Source: Candidatus Forterrea multitransposorum CG_2015-17_Forterrea_25_41 (GTDB taxonomy: Archaea; Iainarchaeota; Iainarchaeia; Iainarchaeales; CSSED10-239). From it: DNA of 64,000 bases. Both the position numbers and the translations under genes were made by a program. Location of the stretch: assembly GCA_009392915.1 (NCBI GenBank), contig CP045477.1, forward strand, positions 1-64,000. The letters run 5' to 3'. Below the pieces are notes generated by a model. That model searched no databases, was not told the origin of the DNA, and saw only the letters and a program-made list of their open reading frames with translations. Positions 16,298 to 55,537 of this stretch are shown in pieces (position 1 is the stretch's first letter; every line of letters starts with the position of its first letter).

Positions 16298-18844
16298 GTG
16301 TTTTTTATGGATGATGCAAATTTAATGCTTTTAAAAAAGAAAGTAAAAGCTATAAAACAATATAAAGGCCAAGGTACTCAACTTATAAGTCTTTATCTTC
16401 CACCTGATGCAGATAGAAGTTCTGCAACAAAACAATTAACTGATGAAATGAGTCAATCTTCAAATATTAAGAGTGCTCAGACTAGAAAAAATGTACAAGC
16501 AGCTTTAAAAAGAATTATTAATTATTTAAAACAAATTGATTTTAAACTTCCTGAAACAGGTTTAGTTTTATTTTCTGGAGATGTTTCAACTAATCCTTCT
16601 AAATCAGATGTAATTTTACTTGCAATTGCACCTCCTGTAAGACTTACAACTAAGCTTTATTGGTGTGATTCAACATTTCACATAGCTCCTTTAGAAGATA
16701 TGGCACAAACAGATGATGTTTATGGTTTAGTTGTTCTTGACAAACGAGAAGCAACAGTTGCTATTTTAAGAGGAAAATCTAAAGAAATTCTTTTTTCAGA
16801 AACCTCAAATGTTCCTGGTAAAACAAAAGCCGGGGGGCAATGTTTAAAAGATGCTTTTGTATCTTTATCTGATGGGAATTTAATAGATGTTAGTGAAATT
16901 TCTAAAAAGGATATTCTTTCTTCTATGAATTTTAAACAAAATAAATTAATTAATTCTAAGGTTTTAGATAATTGGTCAGTTTCTAAAAATAAAACATATA
17001 TTATTAAAACAAAAGCTCCTGGTACAGAAATAAAAGCTAGTGAAGATCATATATTTTTTGTTTTAACTCCAGATGGTGTTGTTGAAAAAGCTTCAAAAGA
17101 TTTAACTTTAAATGATTATTTGTTATTTCCAGAAAAATTATCTTATAAAAATAAAATTTGGTCTTTTGATACTAAAAAATATATTTCTAAATTAAATAAA
17201 CCTTCTATAAAGATACCTATAAAACTTAATAATGTATTTGCTAAATTTTTAGGTTATTTATTAGGTGATGGTTCTATTGAAACTGATAGATTAACTTTTT
17301 ATGAATCTAGAAAAGATGTTATTTTAGAATATAAAAAGTTATTTGATAAATATTTTAATGTAAATTCTTCTTTAACTTTTAGAGATTCTAAAAATTATTA
17401 TCAATTAAGAGTTAATTCAACTGCTCTTGTAAGATTAATTAAAGAAGAATTTAAGGAAATTAAAAAAGCAAGAGATTCTTTAATACCTTCTAAAATATTA
17501 ACTTCTTCTAATAAAATATTAGCTAATTTTTTAAAAGGATTTTATGATGCTGAAGGTTATATTAATACTTCTAGAAAATCAATAGATATTGGAATAAATA
17601 ATAAAAAAATTGCACAACAACTTCAATTATCATTATTAAGATTTTCAATTATTGGATCTTTACAAGAATATGATAATAAACAAAATCCTTATACAAATAA
17701 CCATAGGTTTGTGATTTCAATTTCTGATAAAGAGTCAATAGATTCTTTTGAAAAAAATATTAATTTTACTTCTTTTGAAAAGCAAAAAAAAATAAAAAAA
17801 ATTCAAAAATTAAAAACAAACATGAGTTTCTCAAGAACACTTCCTGTATATGGTAGTCAGGTTAGATCTGTTGTTACAAAACATGGTTATAATTTAGAAC
17901 TTTTCCCAAAAGTGAGTAGTTTTTTCAATAATAATAGAATGCTTAGTAAATGCTTTTTTAAAAGTTCTGTTTTAGATTATGTTAAAGATAAATCTCTTTT
18001 AAAAGATTTAATTAAATTTTATAATATGCCATTTTTTGCTGCAAAGATAAATTCTATATTTATTGAAAAAAAGAAAACAATTATGACAGACATTTCTGTT
18101 GCTAATAAATCTTTTATTGCAAATGGATTAATTGTTCATAATTCAGCACATAGATTCGAAAGACTAAGAGATAAATATGAAGAAGAGTTTTATAAGAGAG
18201 TAGGTTCTAAAGTAAATACTGCTTTTGTAGATCTTGATAATTTTAAAGGAATGATTGTTGGTGGTCCTGGACTTACTAAAAATGAATTTTTAGAAATTGG
18301 TGATTTAGACCACAGAATAAAAGATAAAGTTTTAGGAACTGTAGATACTTCTTATACAGATGAGTCAGGTATAAAAGAAGTTTTAGATAAATCTGAAGAT
18401 ATTTTAAAAGAAACTGGTTTAGTTCATGAAAGAAAATTAATTAATAAGTTTTTTGAAGACTTAGCAAAAACAGGCCTTGCAAATTATGGTTTTCAAGATG
18501 TAATTGATGCCTTAAATATTGGTAAAGCTTCAACTGTTTTAGTGTCTGAAGGTTTAGAATGGACTGTTTTAATTTTTAAATGTTTATCAGACAAATCTAG
18601 ATTTATAAAAATTGTTAAAGATAAACATGAAGTTTCTGATACTATCTCAAAATTTGAAAATTCTCCAACAGATTGTCCAGAAGGTAAAGCAGAACTTGTT
18701 GAAGAAGTTGATATATATGATTATTTTATAGATATTTCTAAAAATACAAGTGCAAAAGTTGAACTTATTTCTATTGAAACTTTAGAAGGTAAACAATTTT
18801 TTGAAACTTTTGGAGGGCTTGCAGCTTTCTTAAGATATAGGTAA
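16298..18844 (+). CDS. prf1: Peptide chain release factor aRF1 interrupted by an in-frame intein
   Basis: The exteins (181 + 233 aa) have the aRF1 architecture, including the catalytic GGQ followed by SAHRFERLR. A 434-aa insertion begins with Cys and ends with His-Asn, followed by Ser. Confidence 0.8.
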   Translation: MFFMDDANLMLLKKKVKAIKQYKGQGTQLISLYLPPDADRSSATKQLTDEMSQSSNIKSAQTRKNVQAALKRIINYLKQIDFKLPETGLVLFSGDVSTNPSKSDVILLAIAPPVRLTTKLYWCDSTFHIAPLEDMAQTDDVYGLVVLDKREATVAILRGKSKEILFSETSNVPGKTKAGGQCLKDAFVSLSDGNLIDVSEISKKDILSSMNFKQNKLINSKVLDNWSVSKNKTYIIKTKAPGTEIKASEDHIFFVLTPDGVVEKASKDLTLNDYLLFPEKLSYKNKIWSFDTKKYISKLNKPSIKIPIKLNNVFAKFLGYLLGDGSIETDRLTFYESRKDVILEYKKLFDKYFNVNSSLTFRDSKNYYQLRVNSTALVRLIKEEFKEIKKARDSLIPSKILTSSNKILANFLKGFYDAEGYINTSRKSIDIGINNKKIAQQLQLSLLRFSIIGSLQEYDNKQNPYTNNHRFVISISDKESIDSFEKNINFTSFEKQKKIKKIQKLKTNMSFSRTLPVYGSQVRSVVTKHGYNLELFPKVSSFFNNNRMLSKCFFKSSVLDYVKDKSLLKDLIKFYNMPFFAAKINSIFIEKKKTIMTDISVANKSFIANGLIVHNSAHRFERLRDKYEEEFYKRVGSKVNTAFVDLDNFKGMIVGGPGLTKNEFLEIGDLDHRIKDKVLGTVDTSYTDESGIKEVLDKSEDILKETGLVHERKLINKFFEDLAKTGLANYGFQDVIDALNIGKASTVLVSEGLEWTVLIFKCLSDKSRFIKIVKDKHEVSDTISKFENSPTDCPEGKAELVEEVDIYDYFIDISKNTSAKVELISIETLEGKQFFETFGGLAAFLRYR
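16841..18142 (+). mobile_element. Intein with a LAGLIDADG homing-endonuclease domain inserted in aRF1 between Gln181 (of GGQ) and Ser
   Basis: N-terminal Cys, C-terminal VHN with a +1 Ser, and two LAGLIDADG-type blocks (FLGYLLGDGS and LKGFYDAEGYI). Confidence 0.75.
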
Positions 18845-21126: not shown

Positions 21127-23268
21127 TTATTCTTTCTTTATTTTTTCATTTATTGTTTTTTCTTGATATTCAATTTTTAATTCTTTTAAAGTATCAAGTC
21201 CAAATTTTCCAACTAAATTAATAAATTTGTCAGTATTATTTTTAATATCGTTAGCGCTCTTTATACCATTATTAAAAAGTCTTCTAGCTCTTACTCTTCC
21301 AATATTTCTAAGTTCAACTAATGGAACAAGTTCTTGTTTAATACCATACTTAATCCTAGAAAGAAGATTTGAATATTCTTTTATAGTTATAATACTTGAT
21401 TTAGTGTGTTTTAAAAGTTCAATTGTAGAGTGACAGATCCATTCTGCTCTTGATATTAAATCTCTTATTTGTCCTGGTGTGGTATTATACTCATCAATAA
21501 TGTAGTTTTCTTCTTTTTCTTCAATCCAGTCAGCTATAAGTTTTGTTAAATATATTTTTTGTAAAAGATAAATATCTTCATAATCAAAGAAAATATTAGG
21601 TCTAATTTCTTCAAAGATTGTAAATATATTATTTTCTTTTTCTTGTTTATATTTTAAATATGGATACATTTCAGATGTGTTTGAAATAGTAAATATTTTT
21701 TCCATAATTTTAGTATCTTTATTTTTTTTAATCTCAAGATCTTTTAAAATATTATTTGCAGATAATGGATCAATGTATAAATAACATACTTTTTTACCAA
21801 GAGAAGTTATTAAAAAATCATTTTCATTTTTCTCTAAAAAACCATATTCATAGAATTCATAGACAATATCTTGTATATTTTTTCTAATTTCATGATTATC
21901 TCCATATGTGAAATAGTAAAATGTTTTTGATAAATAATTAATAAGTTCTTCTATACTTTTTAGTTCATTAACTAAAATCATAGAAAGCAAATGTCCTCTA
22001 AGAATATTTATTTTAGAAAGTTGAGAATCTATATTGGAAGGACCAGAAATAATATATGTGTTGTATATCTTTGGAATATCACTTTCTTTATTTACAACAC
22101 AAATAGCTTCTCCTTTTTTATCATATTTAGGTCTTCCTGCTCTTCCTGCCATTTGTTGAAATTCATTAACCGGTATTGGAACCATTGATCCTTCTGAAAA
22201 TCTAAACACACTATTAATAACAACTCTATATGCAGGTAAATTAATTCCTGCTGCAAGAGTTGGTGTTGCAAAAATTGCTTTAATATTTCCTTTTTTAAAA
22301 TTATTTTCAACAATTTCTCTTTGTTTATAAACAAGTCCTGCATGATGGAAAGCAGACCCCATTAAAAGAGAAAGAGAAAGTTCTTCACATTGTTTTGTAG
22401 GATTTTCTAAGGCTTCAAGAGCTTCTTTTGAAATTTGTCTTAGTTTTTTATATTCTTCTGGATTTATATGGGTTGATATTATTTTTCCATATTTTTTAGC
22501 AAACGACATTGCATTTTTTCTAGATGCACAAAAAACAATAATTTGTTTTTCTTTTTTTAAAGTGTCTCTAATGATTGATCCTAAATTAATGTTTTTAACT
22601 GCAAGAGAAGTTAAATCTTCTTTTCTATCTTCAAAATAAATAGAGTCGTTATAAAAAACCCCAGTCTCTAAAGGAACTGGCCTATAATTACTTAAAACTA
22701 GTTTTGCAGAAAGCCAATCAGATATTTCTTTTGAATTTTTAATAGTTGCAGATAAACCTAAAAGAGTAATTTCCTTGTAGTTATGTTTTAGTTGTGTTAT
22801 TATTACTTCTAAGGTAGATCCTCTGTTTGATCCAAGTTCATGTATCTCATCAATGGTTAAAAGTCCAACTTGTTTAAGCCAGGATGGCTCATGTCTTATG
22901 ATTGAATCAAATTTTTCGTATGTTAAAAATAAAACATCATAACTTTCAAGATATTTATTACTTGAATCAAGATCTCCTGTTGAGAGTGCTATTTTTACAT
23001 CAAGTTCTTTTGCAAACTTTCTTTTAGTTTCAAGATAATGTTCTGTAGTTAATGCTTTTAAAGGAGATATATATATTACTTTTTTTTTCTTATTTAAAAG
23101 ACAATCAAGCATATACATTTCAAAGACTGTTGTTTTACCTGAAGCAGTAGGTGTTGTTATGAGTGTATTTTCTCCTATGTTTTCTTTTGCTAAGATTTGC
23201 ATAGGGTTAAGTTTATCATAACCGTTAATCTTTAAGATTTTTTGAATAATTTCTTCTTTTGAATGCAT
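21127..23268 (-). CDS. Ski2/Hel308-like superfamily 2 DNA/RNA helicase
   Basis: Motif I TPTASGKT, DEIH Walker B (LLTIDEIHEL), SAT motif, QMAGRAGR motif VI, and a winged-helix/ratchet C-terminal region. 713 aa. Confidence 0.75.
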   Translation of the reverse strand: MHSKEEIIQKILKINGYDKLNPMQILAKENIGENTLITTPTASGKTTVFEMYMLDCLLNKKKKVIYISPLKALTTEHYLETKRKFAKELDVKIALSTGDLDSSNKYLESYDVLFLTYEKFDSIIRHEPSWLKQVGLLTIDEIHELGSNRGSTLEVIITQLKHNYKEITLLGLSATIKNSKEISDWLSAKLVLSNYRPVPLETGVFYNDSIYFEDRKEDLTSLAVKNINLGSIIRDTLKKEKQIIVFCASRKNAMSFAKKYGKIISTHINPEEYKKLRQISKEALEALENPTKQCEELSLSLLMGSAFHHAGLVYKQREIVENNFKKGNIKAIFATPTLAAGINLPAYRVVINSVFRFSEGSMVPIPVNEFQQMAGRAGRPKYDKKGEAICVVNKESDIPKIYNTYIISGPSNIDSQLSKINILRGHLLSMILVNELKSIEELINYLSKTFYYFTYGDNHEIRKNIQDIVYEFYEYGFLEKNENDFLITSLGKKVCYLYIDPLSANNILKDLEIKKNKDTKIMEKIFTISNTSEMYPYLKYKQEKENNIFTIFEEIRPNIFFDYEDIYLLQKIYLTKLIADWIEEKEENYIIDEYNTTPGQIRDLISRAEWICHSTIELLKHTKSSIITIKEYSNLLSRIKYGIKQELVPLVELRNIGRVRARRLFNNGIKSANDIKNNTDKFINLVGKFGLDTLKELKIEYQEKTINEKIKKE

Positions 23269-23405
23269 ATTTATTTTTTTAAAAAATTTATTTTTCTGTT
23301 TATATATTATTTTTTTCTTTCTATATATTATTATAAAGAAGATAATATAATACCTCTTTTTATTAATTAATTACTTTTAAAAAGATTATTATAAATAATA
23401 TATTT

Positions 23406-23609
23406 ATGGATATAAATAATAAATTATCTAAAAATCTAAAGTTAGCTTTTAAAGCATATGAAACAAGAAGTATTTCTTTATCAGAGGCAGCAGACATCGC
23501 TGGTATTTCATATAAGGATTTTTTAGATAAAATGGCTGTAAATAATGTTAAGTTTGATTTTTCAAGTATTGGAAAAGATGTGAACTATTTTGTTAAGAAA
23601 ACTAAGTAG
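23406..23609 (+). CDS. UPF0175-like small HTH protein (putative antitoxin)
   Basis: 67 aa with ISLSEAADIAGISYKDFLDKM, resembling UPF0175 antitoxin HTH proteins. Confidence 0.4.
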   Translation: MDINNKLSKNLKLAFKAYETRSISLSEAADIAGISYKDFLDKMAVNNVKFDFSSIGKDVNYFVKKTK

Positions 23610-23625
23610 TTTAATCTTTTTTTAT

Positions 23626-24737
23626 AATTGTGTTGCATAACTCTTTTTAAAAGTATTGTCTAACCTATTTTATTACTAGATAAAGGAGGTTAGACAATAT
23701 GAATATTAAGAACGAAAAGATTAATAAAAGGAACTGGTCAAAGATAAATTATGGAAAAACAAGACAAATCTTGTTTTTACTAGATAAAAACATTATTTTT
23801 AGTGAAAATGAAAGACTAGTTTCCCAAAATAAAAACAAACCAGGAAGACAATTTATATATAGTGATAGAATAATAGAACTATTAATTGATCTTAAAAATT
23901 ATTTTAAATTTGATTATCGTAAACTACAGGCATTCTGCCTGTTGTTTAATAATGTTATAAAAATAAAAACACCTGACTTTACAACTATTTGTAGAAGAAT
24001 GCACAAATTAGAATTATTTCTAAAAAATATAAAAACAAAAAAAGAACCAACCTTTATAGCTATAGATGGTTCTGGACTTCAAACTACTAATCGAGGAGAA
24101 TGGCTTAGATTAATACACAAAAAAGGAAAAATAAACTTAAGAAATGGATTTGTAAAATTAGTGATTGCAACAGATGTTGCATCTGGAGAAATAACTGGAG
24201 TGTATATTTCAGATGATTCTGATTTTGAAAATAAAAGCTTATCAGATTTATTATACCAAACAATAAATAATCAAAACCAAGAAGTCAAAGGACTTCTTGG
24301 AGATGGGGCATACGATTCTTATGATAACTTTGATATGCTTGATGATATGGGAATAAAACCAATTATCAAAATCAGAAAGAATGCAATTACAACAGAACCT
24401 AATGACGATTATTTAAAAAGAAGAAGAAAACTTGGAAAAAAGAAAAAAATAAAAAGAATTGAAGTTGCAAAAAAGCAACTTAAAAATGTAGATGACTGGA
24501 AACAAAAAAATGAGTATAATAAAAGGTGGGTTGTTGAATACACGTTTAGTGTATTCAAAAGACTATTCGGACATAGTGTGTACTCTAAAAGAAAGAAATA
24601 TGTCAAAAATGAAGTAATTTCTAAAGTAAATTTGTATAATAAATTATTAAATATCAATTAAGAAAAAAATAAAATGAATTAAAAAAAGAAATAAGCTAAA
24701 AATATTGTGTAAAACACAATATTTGTGCAACACAATT
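23626..24737 (+). mobile_element. IS5-family-like insertion sequence
   Basis: Perfect 12-bp terminal inverted repeats aattgtgttgca at 23626-23637 and, reverse-complemented, at 24726-24737, extendable to ~17 bp. They flank a single DDE transposase ORF. Flanking T-rich sequence is consistent with an ~8-bp target duplication (ttttttat). Confidence 0.65.
23699..24661 (+). CDS. DDE transposase (IS5/IS4 superfamily)
   Basis: Catalytic blocks IAIDGSG, LGDGAYDS and VVEYTFSVFKRLFG, the E-containing block typical of IS5-family transposases. Confidence 0.65.
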   Translation: MNIKNEKINKRNWSKINYGKTRQILFLLDKNIIFSENERLVSQNKNKPGRQFIYSDRIIELLIDLKNYFKFDYRKLQAFCLLFNNVIKIKTPDFTTICRRMHKLELFLKNIKTKKEPTFIAIDGSGLQTTNRGEWLRLIHKKGKINLRNGFVKLVIATDVASGEITGVYISDDSDFENKSLSDLLYQTINNQNQEVKGLLGDGAYDSYDNFDMLDDMGIKPIIKIRKNAITTEPNDDYLKRRRKLGKKKKIKRIEVAKKQLKNVDDWKQKNEYNKRWVVEYTFSVFKRLFGHSVYSKRKKYVKNEVISKVNLYNKLLNIN

Positions 24738-24818
24738 TTTTTTATCTTTTTTAGTTACATTTATAAATATAATCTTCTTTAATATTAGTACCTTATATAT
24801 ATTATACTCAGATCATTT

Positions 24819-26192
24819 ATGGCTATAGACAAAAGATTTTTTTTAGGGATAACTATTAGTAAAAAAAGAAAAGCAATTTCTCCTTTAATTGCCACTATTC
24901 TTTTAATAGTTGTTGCCGTTGCAATTATAGCTATTATTGTTTCCTGGGGAAAAGGATTTACCAATGATTCTTTAAGCAAAGCCTCTGGTCTTGAAATTTA
25001 CACTGAATCAGAAACTTCTTTTTACTTGCAAGTAAAAAATTCAATAAACGGAAGAACTGTTGTTCAATATAATCCTCCTTATAATTCTCCTCACACCTCT
25101 TTAACCATAACAGGTTATAGCCTACATGGTAACACGAATATTAATCCCATAGATCCACCAATTACAATAACTGCAAACCAAACTGCAGTTATTGATCATG
25201 GTATTTTATTTCCAGAATTAAATTTAGTTTTATATTTGGATAATGATCGAATGATTATTAAAACTGATCTTTTACAAACTATTAAATCTCCTCTTTCTTG
25301 TCCAGAAGGTTATGTTTCTGTTCCAGGAAACCACTTATATGGAACTATGAATGAAAGTGGGGGTTTTTGTGTTTCAAAATATGAGATGAAAATGGATAGA
25401 ACAGGAGATGGAATAGGAAATCTTGTAGCTGATTATCCTGATTGTAACACCGGTTCTTTAACATATAATACTTATAGTTATGAATTATGCCCTACACCAG
25501 GCACTTTAGTTTCTACTCCAGAAGGTTCTCCCATAGCAAGAATCACACAAACTGAAAGCATATCAGCCTGTGAAGCTATTGGTGGTCATTTAATAACAAA
25601 TAACGAATGGATGACCATTGTACGAAACATAGAACAAGTTCCATCTAATTGGTCAGGTGGAGCAGTTGGTGATGGCTACCTTCCAAGAGGGAATTCATCT
25701 TCTTCAGGAGCTATGGAAGGCTTTGATCAACTTTCAGGAACTACCAAAAGAACCTTGACCTTAACAAACGGAGAGGTAATTTGGGATTTAGCAGGAAATG
25801 TAAGACAATGGACCAGTGACACTATTCAAAGAAAGGACCAGCCTGATGGTTTTAATAATGTAGATGATAGTAATAATACTTCTGGTTTTAATTGGTTTGA
25901 TTATTTTAAGGGCGGTGGAGTAGATCAATATATTTATTCTGATAATTTAGGTAACACCACCTTAAAGTATAAAGATTTATTTTTATTAACTAGTAATACT
26001 TATAATGCAACAGATAATGGTGTTGGAAGGATTTATACTTATAGTGATTTTAGTGATACTAGTACAACTGAGTACGCGTTTTTGCGCGGTGGTCACTGGG
26101 GCAATGGCACTAATGCCGGGGTCTTGCACCTGGTCTTGAACAAGACTCCTGGGTCCCGGAGCATCCTCATCGGCCTGCGCTGTGTCAAGTAG
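24819..26192 (+). CDS. DGR target (variable) protein: pilin-like surface protein with a C-terminal FGE/C-type-lectin-fold domain
   Basis: N-terminal class III signal/archaeal pilin-like segment KKRKAISPLIATILLIVVAVAI. FGE/DUF1566-type motifs GGHLITNNEWMTIV, GNVRQWTSD, and a C-terminal FLRGGHWGNG...GLRCVK coinciding with the VR repeat. Confidence 0.8.
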   Translation: MAIDKRFFLGITISKKRKAISPLIATILLIVVAVAIIAIIVSWGKGFTNDSLSKASGLEIYTESETSFYLQVKNSINGRTVVQYNPPYNSPHTSLTITGYSLHGNTNINPIDPPITITANQTAVIDHGILFPELNLVLYLDNDRMIIKTDLLQTIKSPLSCPEGYVSVPGNHLYGTMNESGGFCVSKYEMKMDRTGDGIGNLVADYPDCNTGSLTYNTYSYELCPTPGTLVSTPEGSPIARITQTESISACEAIGGHLITNNEWMTIVRNIEQVPSNWSGGAVGDGYLPRGNSSSSGAMEGFDQLSGTTKRTLTLTNGEVIWDLAGNVRQWTSDTIQRKDQPDGFNNVDDSNNTSGFNWFDYFKGGGVDQYIYSDNLGNTTLKYKDLFLLTSNTYNATDNGVGRIYTYSDFSDTSTTEYAFLRGGHWGNGTNAGVLHLVLNKTPGSRSILIGLRCVK

Positions 26193-26195
26193 TTT
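26075..26195 (+). repeat. DGR variable repeat (VR) at the 3' end of the target gene
   Basis: The 121-bp GC-rich segment matches 27300-27420 at 108 of 121 positions. 12 of the 13 mismatches correspond to adenines in the other copy. Confidence 0.85.
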
Positions 26196-26498
26196 TTAGA
26201 AAAAATATATTTCATCCCCAAACCATGTATTTAGACGGGTGAGACGGCAAGACGGCCAGACGGAAGAAGCCATGGCAACCTAAACGTTTCAAGATTGTTT
26301 TTGCAAAAAAATGAAAAAACGTATTTGTGAAGTTTTAAAAAAAAGAAATGAGTGTGATTTTTGCAAATTTTTTTGATTTTTTTCAAAAAAATTTGCTAGC
26401 CGTTAAACCAAATGGTTTTTTAATGTAAAAATAATTTTTATAATAATTAAGTTTTAAAGAAAAAATACTTTATATCTTGGACAAACAATGTGATTTAA

Positions 26499-26885
26499 AT
26501 GAGTTTAGTTGGAAATGAAAAAGGAATTCTAAATTTTGGTGTTTACAAGGAGCTTTTCCCAATCGTTATTGAAACTTATAATTTTTTAGAAAATAATAAA
26601 TCTTTATTTAAAGTAGATTTTGTTTATACAGATACTGTTAAAAATTTAATAGATATTCTTTCTTTTCTTTCCAAAGGGTATAATAAATTTCATTCTAATG
26701 AAAAATCTTTACTTTACTCTTATTCAAGAGATTGTGTTTCTACAACCCAATCTAATCTTTTAATATTATCTGAACTTAATAAAGATCTCTCAAAAGAAAA
26801 AACCTTATATTTTTATAATCAATTTGAGGATAAAATAAAGTATTTTAATGGTTTAATAAAAAAGATTGAAGAAAATAAAAACTAG
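26499..26885 (+). CDS. Hypothetical protein located between the DGR target and avd
   Basis: 128-aa ORF of unknown function within the DGR cassette. Confidence 0.3.
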   Translation: MSLVGNEKGILNFGVYKELFPIVIETYNFLENNKSLFKVDFVYTDTVKNLIDILSFLSKGYNKFHSNEKSLLYSYSRDCVSTTQSNLLILSELNKDLSKEKTLYFYNQFEDKIKYFNGLIKKIEENKN

Positions 26886-26896
26886 GGTATATTATT

Positions 26897-27226
26897 ATGT
26901 TATTTGACTTAAAGTTATATAAAGAAACTTATAACTTTTTACTTTATATTTATCCTGAAATAAATAAATTCCCTAAATCAGATAAATATTCTTTAGGAGA
27001 GGATATTAAAAAAACAACTATTTCTTTAATGTCAAATATTGTTCTTTTTTCAAAGCATAATGAAAATACTTTAAAAGAAGCAGATAAAAACTTAGAATTA
27101 CTAAGAATATATATTAGGCTTTCTTTTGATTTAAAAATAATCTCTTTTAAAAAATATGAGGTTATTTCAAGGCAATTAAATGATATTGGTAATTTATTAG
27201 GTGGTCTTTTAAAACAAAAGATTTAA
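26897..27226 (+). CDS. avd: DGR accessory variability determinant (Avd)-like four-helix-bundle protein
   Basis: 109 aa with the pattern FPKSDKYSLGEDIKKTTISLMSNI, reminiscent of the bAvd/23S-rRNA-intervening-sequence protein family. It is positioned immediately upstream of TR. Confidence 0.6.
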   Translation: MLFDLKLYKETYNFLLYIYPEINKFPKSDKYSLGEDIKKTTISLMSNIVLFSKHNENTLKEADKNLELLRIYIRLSFDLKIISFKKYEVISRQLNDIGNLLGGLLKQKI

Positions 27227-27299
27227 ATATTTTTTCAACTAATAGTTATGTTGTTCTTTTAAATAAAAAGAATAGGGCTTTTACAGAAAAAAACAGGTG

Positions 27300-27420
27300 C
27301 GCGTTTTTGCGCGGTGGTAACTGGAACAATGGCACTAATGCCGGGGTCTTGAACCTGAACTTGAACAATACTCCTGGGAACCGGAACAACAACATCGGCC
27401 TGCGCTGTGTCAAGTAGTTT
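27300..27420 (+). repeat. DGR template repeat (TR)
   Basis: Intergenic 121-bp copy of VR, adenine-rich in AAC codons, located between avd and the RT gene. Confidence 0.85.
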
Positions 27421-27422
27421 CT

Positions 27423-27445
27423 CCTTATTATTTTTAATAATAAGG
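27423..27445 (+). other. Perfect 10-bp stem hairpin immediately downstream of TR
   Basis: ccttattatt-ttt-aataataagg. Confidence 0.4.
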
Positions 27446-27678
27446 TTTTATCAGAGTTTGTATGTTTATTTTTTTATCTAAAAAAACATATAAAGCGAAT
27501 ATTTTAAAAAACTACATCTGTAAAATGTTTCCTGATTGCACATAATGTGTGCCATAAGAACTATTTTGTTTTTATGTTAAAAAATCAAATATAAAGATAA
27601 GTTATTACATTTAGTATTTTTATAGTCTGTAAAAAGAAATCTGTAATAACTCTTAACTTTAAATAAGGCTTTTTAAAA

Positions 27679-28695
27679 ATGAAATCATACAATAACCTTT
27701 GGCAAGAATTCACTTCTTTTAAAAATATTTTTAATGCCTATAAAAAAGCAAGAAAGTCCACACCAAACAAAAAGTATATCTTGCAATTTACCACAAATTT
27801 AGAAAAGGAGTTATTCTTATTACAAGATCAATTAATTTCAGAAAATTTTCAATTTTCTCCTTACAGAAGTTTTAAAGTTTATGAACCTAAAGAAAGAACA
27901 ATAAGTGCACCTATTTTCAGGGATGTTGTTGTTCAGCATGCCATAATAAACATTATTGAACCTATTTTTGATAAAACCTTTATAGATAACTCTTTTGCTT
28001 GTAGAAAAGGAAAAGGCACACATAAAGGGCTTTTTGAAATTAAAAAAGTAATTCAAACCCCAAATCATCCAAAATACTATTTAAAACAAGATGTAAAGAA
28101 ATACTTTCCTTCAGTTCATAAACCTACCTTAAAAGAAATAATTTTTAAAAGAATTAAGGATGCAAGATTACTTTCTCTAATATATAAAATAATTGATAGT
28201 TATTCTTTTGATTTAAATCAAATTCAAAAAGGTATCCCTATAGGTAATTTAACCTCTCAGTTGTTTGCAAATATTTATTTAAACCATTTAGATCAGTATG
28301 TTAAGCATTCTTTAAAAATTAAACATTATTATAGATATGTAGATGATTTTTTAATATTTTCAAACAATAAAAGAAAATTACATGTTTTTAGAAGAAAAAT
28401 AAAATTATTTTTAAGTAAAGAACTATTATTAGATGTTCCAAAAAATAAAACTTATATAAACTTAGTAAGTAAAGGAGTTGATTTTTTAGGTTATAAGGTA
28501 TTTCCTTCAAACATAAGATTAAGAAAATCAAATCTTAAAAGATTTCTTCTAAGACAAAATAAAAATAACTTTCTTCTAAAAAAAAATCAAATTTCTAAAC
28601 TTAACTATAATTTTTCTCTTTTTTCTTTTTTAGGTTATGCAAAGCATGCAAACTCTTATAATCTCTTAAGTACTTTAAATATTAATGAGTTATAG
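27679..28695 (+). CDS. DGR reverse transcriptase
   Basis: RT motifs FRDVVVQHAI, the DGR-diagnostic motif 4 PIGNLTSQLFANIYLN (IGxxxSQ), and motif 5 YYRYVDDFLIF (YxDD). 338 aa; adjacent to TR. Confidence 0.85.
   Translation: MKSYNNLWQEFTSFKNIFNAYKKARKSTPNKKYILQFTTNLEKELFLLQDQLISENFQFSPYRSFKVYEPKERTISAPIFRDVVVQHAIINIIEPIFDKTFIDNSFACRKGKGTHKGLFEIKKVIQTPNHPKYYLKQDVKKYFPSVHKPTLKEIIFKRIKDARLLSLIYKIIDSYSFDLNQIQKGIPIGNLTSQLFANIYLNHLDQYVKHSLKIKHYYRYVDDFLIFSNNKRKLHVFRRKIKLFLSKELLLDVPKNKTYINLVSKGVDFLGYKVFPSNIRLRKSNLKRFLLRQNKNNFLLKKNQISKLNYNFSLFSFLGYAKHANSYNLLSTLNINEL
28589..28687 (+). repeat. 99-bp direct repeat, copy 1 (3' end of the RT coding sequence)
   Basis: Near-identical to 30138-30236. Confidence 0.8.
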
Positions 28696-28838
28696 TTTAT
28701 TTTTATTATGGGCACTTGAGCGTCTATTTTAAACTTAAATTATAATCTTTTACTAACGCACTATACCTTAATTATAATCTTCTATCAAAAGACTATATTT
28801 AAAAATGTTTTTATTATATATTATATTAGTGATAAAAT

Positions 28839-30104
28839 ATGGATAAAGCTTTTTTAAGAAACGTTGTTTCTGACCAGTATGAAGATTTAAAAGATGTTTC
28901 AAAAACAATACAAAGATATGATTCAAAAGAAATAGCGCGCTTTGTAAATAATCCTGCTATATCTATAATTTCAGGAGTAAGGCGTTGTGGTAAGTCCACT
29001 TTTTTAGAGCAGATAATAAATTTATATTATAAAAATAACTTTTATTATTTTGATTTTTCTGATGAAAGAATTGCAAAATTTGAAACTGCTGACTTTCAAA
29101 CATTATATGAGGTGTTTTTAGAAAAATTTGGAAAAAGACAGGCTTTTTTCTTTGATGAAATACAAGGAGTTCCAGAATGGAATAAATTTGTTAATAGAAT
29201 GAAAAAGATTGGGCATAAATGTTTTGTAACCGGTTCAAATTCAAATTTGTTAAGTCAAGAAATATCTACTTATCTAACAGGAAGACATATTGATAAAATC
29301 TTATTCCCTTTTTCCTTTAAAGAATATTTAACGTATAAAAATATTAATGTAGATTTAGATTCTACAAAATCAAGAACCTTAATTATTAAAGAGTTTAAAA
29401 ATTACTTTAAAATAGGTGGTTTTCCAGAGGTTGTTTTAACAAACGATACTTCAATTTTATTAAATATTTATTCTGACATAATTTCTAAAGATATAATTGA
29501 AAGATTTAGGATTAATGATGTTTCTTTATTTAAAGAATTTTGTAATTATGTAATTTCTTTATCTACGAATGAATTTACTTTTAAATCATTAAAAGATAAT
29601 TTTAATATTCAGAATATTACTACTGTTTCAAACTATCTTGATTATCTTAAATTAACTTACCTTGTTTATGAAGTTAAAAGATTTTCTTCTTCATTACAAA
29701 AATTAAATAAATATCCAAAAAAATATTATTGTATAGATAATGGTTTATTAAATAAAGTGGGTTTTGGATATTCAATAGAGGAAACTAGATTTTTAGAAAA
29801 TCAAGTTTTTATTGAACTTTGGAGAAATAATCCGCAATCTGAAATTTATTATTATAGAGATAAGGATAATAAAGAATGTGATTTTTTATTGTTAAATGAT
29901 AGAAAAGTAGTTAAGGCTATTCAAGTGTGTTTTGCTTTTAAAAAGATAGATACTAGAAAAAGAGAAATAGAAGGTTTACTATCTGCTTTAAAAGAGTTTA
30001 ATCTAAATTATGGCGAAATTATTACTTTTGAGCATAAAGAAAAATTAAAGATAGATGGAAAAGTAATAGAGATGATTCCTGTATATGAGTGGTTATTAAA
30101 ATAA
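28839..30104 (+). CDS. DUF4143/COG1373-family AAA ATPase
   Basis: Walker A GVRRCGKST, Walker B FFFDEIQ, and a C-terminal DUF4143-like region. 421 aa. Confidence 0.65.
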   Translation: MDKAFLRNVVSDQYEDLKDVSKTIQRYDSKEIARFVNNPAISIISGVRRCGKSTFLEQIINLYYKNNFYYFDFSDERIAKFETADFQTLYEVFLEKFGKRQAFFFDEIQGVPEWNKFVNRMKKIGHKCFVTGSNSNLLSQEISTYLTGRHIDKILFPFSFKEYLTYKNINVDLDSTKSRTLIIKEFKNYFKIGGFPEVVLTNDTSILLNIYSDIISKDIIERFRINDVSLFKEFCNYVISLSTNEFTFKSLKDNFNIQNITTVSNYLDYLKLTYLVYEVKRFSSSLQKLNKYPKKYYCIDNGLLNKVGFGYSIEETRFLENQVFIELWRNNPQSEIYYYRDKDNKECDFLLLNDRKVVKAIQVCFAFKKIDTRKREIEGLLSALKEFNLNYGEIITFEHKEKLKIDGKVIEMIPVYEWLLK

Positions 30105-30137
30105 TTTTTTTTAATTTTAAAAAAGGCTTTACCTTTA

Positions 30138-30236
30138 AAATTTCTAAACTTAACTATAATTTTTCTCTTTTTTCTTTTTTAGGTTATGCAAAGCATGCAA
30201 ACTCTTATAATCTCTTAAGTACTTTAAATATTAATG
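30138..30236 (+). repeat. 99-bp direct repeat, copy 2 (intergenic)
   Basis: Near-identical copy of the RT 3' end, downstream of the ATPase gene. Confidence 0.8.
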
Positions 30237-30336
30237 GTTTTATAGTGTAGATTCTCTTTGCATTAAAAATATTGTTTTTGAAAAAAACAAAGCTTTAAAT
30301 TTTGTTTATTTATATAATATATTAGGTGAAAGCAAT

Positions 30337-30549
30337 ATGAAATATAGAGTTTTAATAGAACAAGACGAAGATGGTATCTTTGTTGCTGAATGCCCTAGTC
30401 TTCCAGGTGCAATTTCTCAAGGAAAAACAAGAGAAGAAGCAATAATAAATATTAAAGAAGCCATAAAAGGTTATCTTGAAAGTTTAAAGATAGCTAATGA
30501 ACCAATTCCTTCTCCAATATCTGAAGAAATAATTGATATTTATGGATAA
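30337..30549 (+). CDS. hicB: HicB-like antitoxin (UPF0150)
   Basis: MKYRVLIEQDEDGIFVAECPSLPGAISQGKTREEA is typical of HicB. It overlaps the downstream hicA. Confidence 0.6.
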   Translation: MKYRVLIEQDEDGIFVAECPSLPGAISQGKTREEAIINIKEAIKGYLESLKIANEPIPSPISEEIIDIYG

Positions 30550-30766
30550 ACTGCCTATTATATCTGGTCAAGATTTAATCAAATTACTTCTAAAATTAGA
30601 TTATCAAGTTCATCATCAAACTGGATCACATATTATCTTAAGACAAAATAAAGAACCTTTTAGAAGATTAACAATTCCAAACCATAAAGAAATTTCAATA
30701 GGGACTTTAAGAGCAATTATAAGGCAAGTTGGAATAACAAGAGAAGAATTTGTTAAATTATTCTAA
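30533..30766 (+). CDS. hicA: HicA-like mRNA interferase toxin
   Basis: YcfA/HicA fold signature with conserved His (QTGSHIILRQ). 77 aa. Confidence 0.6.
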   Translation: MIFMDKLPIISGQDLIKLLLKLDYQVHHQTGSHIILRQNKEPFRRLTIPNHKEISIGTLRAIIRQVGITREEFVKLF

Positions 30767-31041
30767 ATTAAATTGTTCTTTTAATTATTATTTTTAATTT
30801 TTTTAAAGTAAAATAAATAATTTTTAACCTAATTTAAATGTTTTTAAGTAATTTATAATATTTTTTTAATTTACTACATAAAAACAAATCTTTTTAAGCA
30901 ATTCGGTCTATAATTATATTATATAAAAAATCTACTTTTATAAATATCCTATTTTTTGCGGCTGTTTTAATTATTAAAAACAGTAGTAGATAGGTTATTG
31001 ATTTTTAGTTTCTATGATTAGAAGACAAGAGGTTAATTAAC

Positions 31042-31719
31042 ATGATAAAAACAAAAGATATTATTGAAATTGATCTAATTTTAAAAGATGTAAATACTAA
31101 TGAAATTTTAGATACTACAAAAAAAGAAATTGCGAAAGAAAATAATTTAAATTTAAAAAATGAATATAAACCTTTAAATTATGTTTTTGGTACTGGAGAA
31201 CTTTTAAAAGGTATTGAAGATAATATTTCTGATTTAGAAGTTTCTAAAACAAAAACATTTGTTTTAAAAAAAGAACAAGCTTTCAAAGATAAAGACCCTA
31301 AAAAAATAGAATTAGTTTCTTTAAATGAATTTAAAAAAGAAAATGTAAGACCAGAAGTTGGTTTATTTGTAAATATTGGAAATAGATCTGGAAAAATAAT
31401 TTCTGTTTCTGGTGGAAGAGTTAAAGTTGATTTTAATCCTATTTATGCAGGAAGAGATTTAGAATATACTGTAACAATAAATAAAGTTATTTCTAAAGAT
31501 TCTGATAAACTTCCTTTACTTTTAGAAAAGGCATTTTATTTTATGCCAAAAGAACAAATTAATTTAATTTCTAAAGAAGATGAAATTGAAGTTGAAATGC
31601 CTTTAGGTGTTCCTCAAGAAATTGATTATTTTAAACAATTTTTTGCAAAACTAGTTTTTGATTCAACTAATTATGAAAATGTTAAGTTTGTTCAAAAATT
31701 AACTAAGAAAAAAGGGTGA
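31042..31719 (+). CDS. FKBP-type peptidyl-prolyl cis-trans isomerase (long archaeal type)
   Basis: FKBP core (YVFGTGELLKGIEDNI ... NPIYAGRDLEYTVTI) with an IF-domain insertion. Confidence 0.6.
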   Translation: MIKTKDIIEIDLILKDVNTNEILDTTKKEIAKENNLNLKNEYKPLNYVFGTGELLKGIEDNISDLEVSKTKTFVLKKEQAFKDKDPKKIELVSLNEFKKENVRPEVGLFVNIGNRSGKIISVSGGRVKVDFNPIYAGRDLEYTVTINKVISKDSDKLPLLLEKAFYFMPKEQINLISKEDEIEVEMPLGVPQEIDYFKQFFAKLVFDSTNYENVKFVQKLTKKKG

Positions 31720-35724: not shown

Positions 35725-35786
35725 ATATTTTTTTAAAAATAACTTTATAAAACAATTTATATTGTTTATGTTCTATAATTATAATT

Positions 35787-37617: not shown

Positions 37618-37699
37618 GCAGAGGTGGCGGAGTGGTCAAACGCGCCAGCCTTGAGAGCTGGAGCCTTGCGCTACACGAGTTCGAATCTCGTCCTCTGCG
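37618..37699 (+). tRNA. tRNA-Ser (anticodon TGA), type II with long variable arm
   Basis: Acceptor gcagagg/cctctgc, anticodon stem ccagc/gctgg with loop cttgaga, T-loop ttcgaat. No encoded CCA. Confidence 0.8.
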
Positions 37700-37730
37700 C
37701 TTTATCTTTTAAAATATAGGAATTTTTATT

Positions 37731-38063
37731 ATGATTAAAGAAAACATTTCTTTTCAAGATTTTTTAAAACTTGATATAAGAATTGGAACAATTGTTGAGG
37801 CTGAAGCTGTTGAGGGTTCTGATAAATTAATAAAATTAATAATTGATTTTAAAGATTTTAAAAGACAGATTTTAGCTGGTATTAAAACAAAATATCAACC
37901 AACTGATTTATTAAACAAACAAATTCCTGTTATTGTAAATTTAGAACCTAGAAAAATGATGGGTTTTGAAAGTCAAGGAATGATCTTAGCTGTTGGAGAT
38001 AAAACTTTAGATGCTTTACTTTTACCATCTGAGCCTGTATCGGAAGGCTCGATTGTACACTAA
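37731..38063 (+). CDS. tRNA-binding domain protein (Trbp111/CsaA/EMAP-like)
   Basis: LDIRIGTIVEAEAVEGSDKLIKL OB-fold tRNA-binding signature. 110 aa. Confidence 0.65.
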   Translation: MIKENISFQDFLKLDIRIGTIVEAEAVEGSDKLIKLIIDFKDFKRQILAGIKTKYQPTDLLNKQIPVIVNLEPRKMMGFESQGMILAVGDKTLDALLLPSEPVSEGSIVH

Positions 38064-38084
38064 TTTTTTTTTAAAACTAAAAAT

Positions 38085-38166
38085 GCAGAGGTGGCGGAGT
38101 GGTCAAACGCGCAAGCCTGGAAAGCTTGAGCCTCGTGCTACGCGAGTTCGAATCTCGTCCTCTGCG
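38085..38166 (+). tRNA. tRNA-Ser (anticodon GGA)
   Basis: Same scaffold as the upstream tRNA-Ser; anticodon loop ctggaaa. Confidence 0.8.
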
Positions 38167-38197
38167 CTTTTTTCTTTTTTAATTTAATATTTATTTT

Positions 38198-38286
38198 GCA
38201 GAGATGGCGGAGTGGTCAAACGCACAAGTTTCGAAAACTTGATTAAGGTTTTTTCCTTTACATGAGTTCAAATCTCATTCTCTGCG
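38198..38286 (+). tRNA. tRNA-Ser (anticodon CGA)
   Basis: Acceptor gcagaga/tctctgc, anticodon loop ttcgaaa, long variable arm, T-loop ttcaaat. Confidence 0.75.
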
Positions 38287-38462
38287 TAGCTGGTTTCGGT
38301 CAGCTAGCACCCAATGATTTTGCGTTTGTTAACGCTTATTTAAACTTTCTTTTTAAAAGAAGTGATTTTCCCCCAAAACTTTTTTTCTTTAAAAATTGTG
38401 TTTTAAAAATTTTTAATCTATTTTATATCTATTTAAAATACTTTTGCCTCTCTTTAATATTT

Positions 38463-39596: not shown

Positions 39597-40364
39597 ATGA
39601 ATTTATTATTTTTAGGATTAGGTAATACAGGTATTTCTATTGCCGATAGATTATCTAAAAATAATAATATATTCTATTATGATGTAGTTAAAAAAAATGT
39701 AGCTTATAAGTATTTACCTTTAACAAAGTTAAAAAAATCTAATTTTGATTATATAATAGTTACACTTTCTTCAATTTCGATATTAAACCGACTTAAATTA
39801 TGCTCTAAATATAATACTACTTATGATTTAAGAAAATATGAGTTGGTTAAAAATAAAAATAGTTTGAAAAAAATTATAAATTACCTCCCTAATTCTAAGG
39901 TAATTGTAGTTTCTAATCCTGTGGATGATATTGTTACTTTTTTATCAAAAAATACTAATTTAGATGTAATTGGTTTTGGGATTTCTTTAGATGCTTTAAG
40001 ATATTCTAATTATTTTAAACAAAAAATTAATTGTATTGGTTTACATGGTTTTTCAGTTCCTTTAAAGGTATTAAAAAGTAAAACTCATTTTTTAAAAAGT
40101 TATTCGGCGGTTGATCTAAAATTATTTAACTCTTTTAAAGTTAATGGTATTAATTATGATCTAGTATCAAAAGAATTTGAATTATTTTTTAATAAACTTA
40201 ATTCAGATAAACAAAATACATTATATTTATCTAAATATATTTCAAAAGACATTCTAGGATTAGAAAATATATCTTTATCTCTCCCTTATTTTGTAAAAAA
40301 AGGAAAAGTAGTTGGTCTTAAACAAATAAAACTAACTAGTCTTGAAAAAAATCTATTAAAATAA
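39597..40364 (+). CDS. Lactate/malate dehydrogenase-like Rossmann protein (short, possibly degenerate)
   Basis: N-terminal GLGNTG Rossmann motif and a VSNPVD motif, but only 255 aa. Confidence 0.35.
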   Translation: MNLLFLGLGNTGISIADRLSKNNNIFYYDVVKKNVAYKYLPLTKLKKSNFDYIIVTLSSISILNRLKLCSKYNTTYDLRKYELVKNKNSLKKIINYLPNSKVIVVSNPVDDIVTFLSKNTNLDVIGFGISLDALRYSNYFKQKINCIGLHGFSVPLKVLKSKTHFLKSYSAVDLKLFNSFKVNGINYDLVSKEFELFFNKLNSDKQNTLYLSKYISKDILGLENISLSLPYFVKKGKVVGLKQIKLTSLEKNLLK

Positions 40365-55136: not shown

Positions 55137-55211
55137 TTTCTTTTTTTCTTATTTTTTAATAAAATATTTAAAAAGAATCTATTTATAAACTTTGTGGTTC
55201 TTATTATTTAT

Positions 55212-55328
55212 GTTAGCGGCCATAGGGATGGAGAAACACCTGGACCCTTTCCGAACCCAGAAGTTAAGTCTATTGCCGTTTTAGTTCGCTGTTAGTTCAT
55301 GCTAGTAGCGTCTTTAAAGCTGCTAACA
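55212..55328 (+). rRNA. 5S rRNA (divergent, unlinked to 16S/23S)
   Basis: 5' gcggccatag...ccgaacccagaagttaag conserved 5S blocks. Terminal helix ttagcggc/gctgctaa with one G·U pair. The middle/3' part is AT-rich and atypical. Confidence 0.55.
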
Positions 55329-55537
55329 TTTAATATTTTCTATTTTATAAAAAAGAATTATTAAAAGCTATTTTTTTTAAAAATAATTTTTCTACAAGCA
55401 AAACTTATTTTTTTATAAATAATTTAGTTCTTGTTTAGATAAACTTAAATTAAATCTATTTTTTAAAATTAAATATCTTTTAATATATTTCCCTACACAT
55501 TTATTTATTATAATTATTTATTTAAGGGGAAAAATAT

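Follow-up and report, generated by a model that had tools for sequence, protein, structure and literature searches.

The 64,000-nucleotide stretch analysed here, called the window below, comprises positions 1 to 64,000 (forward strand) of contig CP045477.1 from Candidatus Forterrea multitransposorum CG_2015-17_Forterrea_25_41 (assembly GCA_009392915.1), a member of the Iainarchaeota (Diapherotrites, DPANN); its GC content is about 24.6%. Nine plus-strand open reading frames (ORFs) lie between a minus-strand gene for a Hel308-type helicase (21127-23268) and a gene for an FKBP26-like protein that starts at 31042. They encode, in order, a UPF0175-family protein, the transposase of an IS5-family insertion sequence (IS), the target, orf128, Avd and reverse transcriptase (RT) of a diversity-generating retroelement (DGR), an AAA_14/DUF4143 ATPase and a HicB/HicA pair. 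The DGR also contains a variable repeat (VR) and a template repeat (TR). An earlier reading of the window, made from the letters and without database searches (the sequence-only reading), had described this block, and all nine ORFs are present at the stated coordinates. Its calls of UPF0175, IS5-family IS, DGR, AAA_14/DUF4143 ATPase and HicB/HicA correspond to family matches above curated cut-offs (Table 1). The Avd and RT genes of this genome were already annotated at NCBI.

The genes that were checked in the rest of the window are housekeeping in content: they encode POR, PCNA, Rad50, primase, GINS, eIF2-alpha, eRF1 and TruD, and further proteasome, CPSF, CCA enzyme, an aminoacyl-tRNA synthetase (aaRS), TBP and STT3. 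A search with Rfam returned tRNAs and 5S rRNA alone, and no other known RNA family in the window. The distinction between a block of accessory functions and housekeeping surroundings is upheld, both by this gene content and by the empty site in relatives. One border had to be moved. It had been placed at the 3' end of the helicase gene (21127), but that gene is divergent from the block, which adjoins its 5', promoter side at 23268.

Table 1. Position of the features of the accessory block in the window, and the basis of each assignment
Feature	Coordinates	Strand	Basis
UPF0175-family small protein (antitoxin-like/helix-turn-helix)	23406-23609	+	Pfam PF03683, 32.7 bits, cut-off 27.9
IS5-family IS, 1,112 bp	23626-24737	+	copy comparison; transposase 23699-24661
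DGR target protein, 457 aa	24819-26192	+	PF03781 FGE-sulfatase 29.5 bits, cut-off 23.3
VR, including 3' segment same as TR (initiation of mutagenic homing (IMH)-like)	26072-26195	+	repeat comparison
(AGACGGnn)x4 element	26234-26263	+	GACGGGTGAGACGGCAAGACGGCCAGACGG
orf128, Avd/23S-rRNA-IVS-like four-helix bundle (predicted)	26499-26885	+	structure model and profile searches
Avd (accessory variability determinant)	26897-27226	+	PF22296 bAvd 76.8 bits; NF033474 DivGenRetAVD 92.4 bits, cut-off 80
TR, 30 adenines, 12 AAY codons	27297-27420	+	repeat comparison
TR-RT spacer, putative structured part of DGR RNA	27421-27678	+	alignment of 5 cassettes
DGR RT, 338 aa	27679-28695	+	RVT_1 77.5 bits; PADLOC generic RT 167 bits
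99-nt direct repeat copy 1 (RT gene 3' end)	28589-28687	+	repeat search
AAA_14 + DUF4143 ATPase (COG1373; predicted PD-(D/E)XK)	28839-30104	+	Pfam 118.7 and 81.7 bits
99-nt direct repeat copy 2	30138-30236	+	repeat search
HicB-like antitoxin, 70 aa	30337-30549	+	PF15919 HicB_lk_antitox 41.5 bits
HicA toxin	30542-30766	+	PF07927 HicA_toxin 63.6 bits

An alignment of FKBP homologues led to 11 loci from species-representative genomes, which were annotated by tblastn with the window proteins (loci and contigs used for comparison carry L numbers). In five of them (L039, L041, L042, L044 and L046), Hel308 stands beside FKBP-PsmB-CPSF with the flanking gene order kept, the two being 195 to 815 bp apart, and none of the nine island genes is found in the gap; that of L041 holds a single unrelated 176-aa orphan ORF. 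Protein identity to the window is 76 to 80% for L039 and 52 to 61% for the other four. DNA alignment pairs window 23200-23385 with L039 9277-9450 and window 30875-31100 with L039 9463-9673, and the block in between, 23386-30874 (about 7.5 kb), corresponds to about 12 nt of L039 spacer; the limits of the sequence-only reading, 23406-30766, are consistent with this inserted block. That reading had proposed synteny as a check, conservation of the whole block in distant relatives being what would speak against an island. Since the site is empty in five relatives at 52 to 80% protein identity, the whole block maps to one point of a conserved intergenic region. Different cargo is present at the same spot elsewhere, namely a different DGR in L038 (an Avd-like gene and a 505-aa RT, 38% identical) and a Bro-N gene in L043. 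The site is therefore variable, and the block accessory.

Intermediate states of the block also exist. In L053 (GCA_015657875.1), the site reads Hel308-UPF0175-target-orf128-Avd-RT-FKBP, with no IS, ATPase or HicBA; relative to this locus, the segments particular to the window are 23624-24741 and 28706-30873. L037 and L040 carry UPF0175, target and RT at the site, and the IS is absent. The proposal of one compact island thus holds in so far as the block is accessory, and fails as a single acquisition: a core of UPF0175 and DGR is found in L053, L037 and L040, and at least two later insertions are nested in the window block.

The first of these is the IS, whose ends follow from a comparison between copies at four places (window, L019, L020 and L018). 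It has 12-bp perfect terminal inverted repeats (TIRs; AATTGTGTTGCA), and the window copy is flanked on each side by the 8-bp target duplication TTTTTTAT. The 320-aa DDE transposase matches NCBIfam NF033579 transpos_IS5_2 (195.3 bits, cut-off 140) and Pfam PF01609 DDE_Tnp_1 (79.5 bits), plus PF13737. The population has been assembled independently in more than 60 sample blocks, and the IS is multicopy and polymorphic in it: other copies have their own 8-bp duplications (TAAAATAT and GAAAACAA) at sites where the window has no copy, which brings such duplications to three independent sites, with both occupied and empty alleles found. In L019 and L022, the copy with duplication TAAAATAT lies between the TBP and 5S rRNA genes, just upstream of the 5S start, and window 55137-55537 is its empty site. 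The sequence of L007 parts from that of the window at 35730; this position is immediately upstream of the CCA-enzyme gene, and L018 has an IS copy there. We conclude that the IS is active in this lineage, and that it is a lineage-specific later addition to the block. It shares with the IS5 family a single DDE transposase, a length of about 1.1 kb, short perfect TIRs, an 8-bp duplication and polymorphic copies; the ISH1 group of this family also makes 8-bp duplications (ISfinder). The window element differs in being placed by the NCBIfam model, without a subgroup, and in having a DPANN archaeon as host.

The IS raises the question of whether the adjacency of helicase and UPF0175 genes to the DGR could be an assembly artefact across a multicopy element. 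Many public contigs of the population break inside the IS, and public assemblies put it on different flanks: a 160-aa gene-IS-DGR order in L001, L017 and L025, UPF0175-IS-MJ0043_C in L034, and further alternative junctions in L018 and L020-L023, including a CCA-enzyme flank. However, the duplication is perfect on both sides of the window copy, whereas those of the hybrid joins do not match; the UPF0175-IS-DGR join of the window recurs in two JGI assemblies (L024 and L026); and in L053, L037 and L040, UPF0175 stands directly beside the DGR target without any IS. The matching duplication and this IS-free adjacency argue that the window join is genuine, and we see next to no likelihood of an artefact. 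The hybrid joins may be either assembler chimeras or real IS-mediated inversions or deletions in some strains.

The second nested insertion contains the ATPase gene, which is bracketed by a perfect 99-nt direct repeat. Copy 1 is the 3' end of the RT gene, the last codons of which sit at the edge of the insertion. Copy 2 and CATTAAAAATATTGTT, about 25 nt downstream, align with the region 3' of the RT gene in L037, L040 and L053, which argues that copy 2 has retained the surroundings that the RT 3' end had ancestrally; its reading ...LNINGFIV before the stop resembles the RT2 end, ...EINGFDRIF and stop. From this alignment, the ATPase insertion, a 1.45-kb segment with its 99-nt duplication, is read as having replaced the last few RT codons alone. 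The possibility that the repeat is a k = 100 assembler artefact was rejected: it is gap-free in MEGAHIT k141 and JGI contigs. The structure is seen in assemblies made at k = 141 and in all 24 contigs read, and is thus both genuine and fixed in this population. L015 and L016, contigs produced by different assemblers, both begin exactly at 28592. No ATPase-less variant and no circular or tandem form was seen, the ATPase gene being upstream in all 24 HicB-bearing contigs, and the RT protein cluster contains no 340-aa RT variant.

The ATPase matches PADLOC PDC-S01 over its full length (E = 1.5e-102, residues 22-421), which makes it a candidate for anti-phage defence. The sequence-only reading had spoken of defence functions in the block; for the ATPase, this holds as a candidate label taken from PADLOC PDC-S01. 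The same two Pfam domains and the full PDC-S01 match are shared with the AAA_14-DUF4143 (COG1373) ATPases, the window gene differing by the 99-nt duplication of its insertion target on either side. We found in the literature no paper on the function of PDC-S01/COG1373 ATPases, and no description of a long flanking duplication of the insertion target for the AAA_14-DUF4143 family. DUF4143 is listed in the PD-(D/E)XK superfamily, with function unknown (PMC3424549). The ATPase might be self-mobile through its PD-(D/E)XK domain.

Downstream lies the HicBA pair. The hicA gene more likely starts at ATG 30542 (74 aa, as in public gene calls) than at TTG 30533, which gives 77 aa; with the former start, it overlaps hicB by 8 nt. 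The pair resembles type II HicAB toxin-antitoxin (TA) modules in its adjacent, overlapping genes with HicA_toxin and HicB-like domains. It differs from them in that the antitoxin gene comes first, and in that the 70-aa HicB matches PF15919 at profile positions 1-59 of 123, that is, the N-terminal HicB fold alone, without the usual C-terminal DNA-binding domain. The pair may have an addiction or defence role. UPF0175 is found with the DGR at the site in L053, L037 and L040 (84 to 87% aa identity in L037 and L040), and is absent from the empty sites. No toxin-like ORF lies beside it in the window or in these three loci; unlike UPF0175 antitoxins accompanied by a PIN-domain toxin, it is an orphan. 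A role as accessory gene of the DGR was rejected, as it is absent from DGR2, a paralogous DGR described below. As a separate observation, L053 carries between TruD and DUF5654 (2758-3386) a 94-aa gene and ParE-like toxin pair that is absent from the window, and represents a further small TA insertion nearby.

The DGR itself has the RT motifs IGNLTSQ at residue 188 and YVDD at 220. VR and TR form a 124-nt repeat with 14 mismatches, 12 of which fall at TR adenines (30 A in 124 nt; hypergeometric p = 3.6e-7). VR spans the last 40 codons of the target, and TR supplies 12 AAY codons there; within the window, no other VR-like targets of TR were found. The C-terminal domain of the target, which carries VR, is FGE-sulfatase/C-type-lectin-like: PF03781 covers residues 234-366. 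The N-terminus, KRKAISPLIATILLIVVAVAII..., matches TIGR02537 arch_flag_Nterm (24.1 bits, cut-off 20), the class III signal of archaellins and type IV pilins. This match makes it likely that the target is processed and displayed at the surface as a pilin-like protein. In NCBI, a 328-aa partial copy of it (protein cluster P0063) bears the label 'Candidatus Wolfebacteria bacterium'; this copy comes from a 1,149-bp contig and is probably a mis-binned piece of this archaeon.

Variation of the DGR was followed in the population by comparing VR and TR in 14 contigs. The TR sequence is the same in all of them, VR comes in three alleles, and the surrounding 15 kb are at least 99.8% identical. The share of VR-TR mismatches at TR adenines is 12/14, 13/15 and 16/20 in the three alleles (p = 4e-7 to 8e-9), and one of the alleles differs from the window at 18 positions, all within 26094-26169. 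The protein cluster likewise contains three full-length target proteins that differ in VR alone. Two contigs, L006 and L014, begin at or just before VR. Three VR alleles, an invariant TR and differences focused on adenines together provide good indirect evidence for current or recent mutagenic retrohoming, and the DGR looks active or recently active. Separately, L049 (sample ERZ27293361) has five clustered single-nucleotide polymorphisms at the start of the RT gene (window 27682-27714), where codon 2 is changed from AAA to TAA, leaving a 304-aa ORF; this is a possible RT-null variant in the population.

The gene between target and Avd, orf128, has no Pfam match of its own. Its AlphaFold (AF2) model consists of four helices (predicted local distance difference test score, pLDDT, 84), and the best folds in PDB are 2RLD and 2GSC, of the 23S-rRNA-IVS family, and Avd (4DWL/8UB7). 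A profile search retrieved just 51 cluster representatives among 1.84 billion proteins. PF05635 is matched by 24 of 40 aligned sequences (orf128 and 39 relatives from the profile search), and the orf128 profile matches 2GSC with E = 4.9e-5. A novel fold was ruled out in favour of an Avd/IVS-like four-helix bundle, and the model and profiles identify orf128 as a second, divergent Avd-like protein. The gene order target-orf128-Avd is also found in DGR2, L053 and L054-L056, which indicates that this DGR lineage has two Avd-superfamily genes.

In a five-cassette alignment, the spacer between TR and RT is conserved more than the coding parts, with 78 predicted pairs, five of them having compensatory changes; it is a putative structured part of the DGR RNA. 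The same genome contains DGR2 (L051/L052 6375-10222), between metallo-beta-lactamase-fold genes and PheRS, with the order target-orf131-Avd-TR-RT and 77 to 81% aa identity to the window DGR. L053 is 86 to 95% identical to the window in its flanks at the nucleotide level, compared with 77% in the DGR, and its DGR is nearer to the paralogous DGR2 (82%) than to that of the window (77%). The cassette evolves apart from its flanks in these comparisons, which hint at an exchange of cassettes between loci. L037 and L040 have a lone VR-like repeat (L037 5575-5695, L040 7944-8064), then the TR-downstream spacer and the RT gene, which in L040 is split into fragments of 71 and 142 aa. The single-repeat structure could be real recombination between VR and TR, or an assembly collapse. 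We also observed in L040 (4134-16954, on a 671-kb contig of a metagenome-assembled genome) a tandem duplication with a period of 6,351 bp, Hel308(partial)-UPF0175-target-RT-FKBP(partial), which may be either real or a misassembly.

An (AGACGGnn)x4 array, made of four AGACGGnn units, starts 42 nt past the target stop codon and has no second copy in the window (0 chance matches expected). It is found once each, 37 to 90 nt downstream of VR and essentially invariant, in seven distinct target loci: DGR1 (the window), DGR2, L053, L054, L041, L058 and L059 (L051 7773-7802, L053 7754-7783, L054 5740-5769, L041 639-668, and, on the minus strand, L058 555-584 and L059 1066-1095). The target proteins of these loci are just 50 to 81% identical. 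The array is absent beside TR, and it also accompanies targets not followed by avd genes (L041 and L058). The final 28 nt of VR and TR are the same, without an IMH/IMH* difference of the BPP-1 type at their 3' ends, from which we infer that the array helps to distinguish VR as the recipient. We therefore regard it as a candidate VR-marking cis element. The array forms no hairpin, and one downstream of VR is not supported, as 26196-26300 folds no better than shuffles (z = +1.18). The IMH/IMH* difference and a downstream hairpin or cruciform are not universal among DGRs. The bolder proposal that the array is a new DGR target-recognition signal which replaces IMH/IMH* and the GC hairpin and directs cDNA to local and remote target genes, perhaps by way of the lineage-specific orf128 or of a two-tetrad G-quadruplex, with, as a separate matter, self-mobility of the DUF4143 ATPase, seems doubtful to us.

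A further observation concerns L058, which is very close to the window (TrpRS/TyrRS 98.7% and GtrA 96% identical). Between these TrpRS/TyrRS and GtrA genes, at 505-1978, it carries a DGR-target homologue with an (AGACGGnn)x4 array, and at the corresponding site the window carries an unrelated 255-aa ORF (39597-40364). This is a second variable site, at which the L058 gene is a probable remote DGR target.

The composition of the block, another check proposed by the sequence-only reading, gave a mixed result. The target gene is the strongest GC and tetranucleotide outlier of the window (GC 0.355; tetranucleotide z = 3.1), and GC at third codon positions (GC3) is higher in island genes, with a median of 0.132 compared with 0.094 in 54 background genes (Mann-Whitney p = 7e-4). 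The part from RT through ATPase to HicBA is of ordinary composition. The raised GC3, and the run of nine contiguous genes that are all of accessory type, would fit a block of 7.4 kb that arrived as a single mobile genomic island in one horizontal-transfer event. L053, which has UPF0175 and the DGR alone at the site, contradicts this; the IS inside the block has its own TIRs and target duplication, and the ATPase its own 99-nt flanking repeat. Moreover, a classical integrative genomic island would be expected to have an integrase, att-type flanking repeats and insertion at a tRNA gene, all of which are absent here. We give very little credence to a single transfer.

Another possibility is that the whole group descends from an ancestor with the DGR block and has lost it repeatedly, the locus being one of decay and not an insertion hotspot. 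The different DGR upstream of FKBP in L038, the decay of the DGR in L037 and L040 (VR/TR collapse, and fragmented RT in L040), and the target homologues with array in L041, L058 and L059, which indicate that the DGR lineage is old in the clade, may be taken in this sense. Yet five lineages, at 52 to 80% identity, have a clean short spacer with no remnants, the RT of L038, just 38% identical, suggests an independent acquisition, and the IS, the ATPase duplication and HicBA have clearly been added. Repeated loss of an ancestral block thus appears improbable. We consider instead, with a probability of about 85%, that the locus is a composite accessory island grown by successive insertions into one variable spot of the Hel308/FKBP-proteasome-CPSF intergenic region.

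Several points weigh against successive insertions, or against the DGR activity described above. No integrase domain was found by Pfam among the island proteins, no tRNA gene lies closer than 37618, and direct repeats at the outer borders are no longer than an 11-nt A/T run. Bulk GC and tetranucleotides of most of the island are indistinguishable from the genome, so that composition alone could not reveal it. The direction of change, gain or loss, was derived by parsimony over the 11 relatives, without a species tree. L037 and L040 are without orf128, Avd and a separate TR. A C-terminal remnant of another DUF4143 gene lies downstream of the RT gene in L040, which means that the ATPase association may predate this lineage. 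As to VR, two to four differences per allele are at non-adenine positions of TR, and the alleles were compared as assembly consensus sequences, not as reads.

Growth by successive insertions would imply at least two layers. The first, common to close relatives, would comprise the orphan UPF0175 gene and a complete DGR, in the order target with VR, (AGACGGnn)x4, orf128, Avd, TR, structured spacer and RT. The lineage-specific second layer would consist of the IS5-family element, inserted between UPF0175 and the target gene with its 8-bp duplication, and of a 2.17-kb segment downstream of the RT gene, made of the DUF4143 ATPase and the HicB-HicA pair. The ATPase gene would have inserted at the extreme 3' terminus of the RT gene, and 99 nt of this terminus would have been duplicated along with it. 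By analogy with the DGR of Bordetella phage BPP-1, RT and Avd would reverse-transcribe the TR-spacer RNA, misincorporating opposite adenines, and the cDNA would replace VR. Up to 12 Asn (AAY) codons and a few other A-containing codons would thereby be recoded, in the C-terminal lectin-like face of the pilin-like surface protein, which probably serves attachment, to a host cell for instance. A life attached to other cells is assumed for DPANN archaea, whose genomes are very small.

In DPANN archaea, Diapherotrites among them, DGRs have been reported to be numerous and varied, and the DGR architecture met most often is target-avd-TR-RT ('architecture B'; Wu et al. 2018, PMC5758913); DGRs of DPANN archaea and of bacteria of the candidate phyla radiation (CPR) are the subject of Paul et al. 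2015 and 2017, as cited in PMC5758913. With these, and with mtd-avd-TR-brt of BPP-1, the window DGR shares the RT motifs ([ILV]GxxxSQ and YxDD), Avd, a TR/VR pair with adenine-specific differences, the order target-avd-TR-RT and a VR at the 3' end of a gene with a C-type-lectin/FGE-like domain; like those of DPANN archaea, it is on the chromosome of a small-genome archaeon. It differs from these systems by two tandem Avd-superfamily genes (orf128 and Avd) instead of one, by the archaeal pilin-type class III signal at the N-terminus of its target, and by the insertion that hit the 3' end of its RT gene. From BPP-1, it differs further by identical VR/TR 3' ends and by a conserved (AGACGGnn)x4 array, with no conserved GC hairpin.

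IS5 elements, HicAB modules and COG1373 ATPases are frequent among accessory genes, and the locus is a well-documented case in which elements of known kinds, and none of a new kind, come together; current understanding is not overturned by it. The content of variable regions in DPANN archaea shows what fast adaptation needs. Here, such a region is cleanly resolved, as the empty site, intermediate states and population alleles are all at hand, and it shows an IS, a TA pair and a defence-candidate ATPase accumulating around a DGR that diversifies a pilin-like protein. It also offers testable leads in the candidate cis signal for VR recognition, the second Avd-like protein and the insertion with a 99-nt duplication.

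Two further features of the window were noted. The eRF1 gene (16298-18844) contains an intein, in which Pfam labels a LAGLIDADG homing-endonuclease domain; this intein is a further mobile element within a stretch that is otherwise housekeeping. Three tRNA-Ser genes (UGA, GGA and CGA) lie within 670 bp, at 37618-38287, the third of which overlaps the longest ORF of the next aaRS gene.

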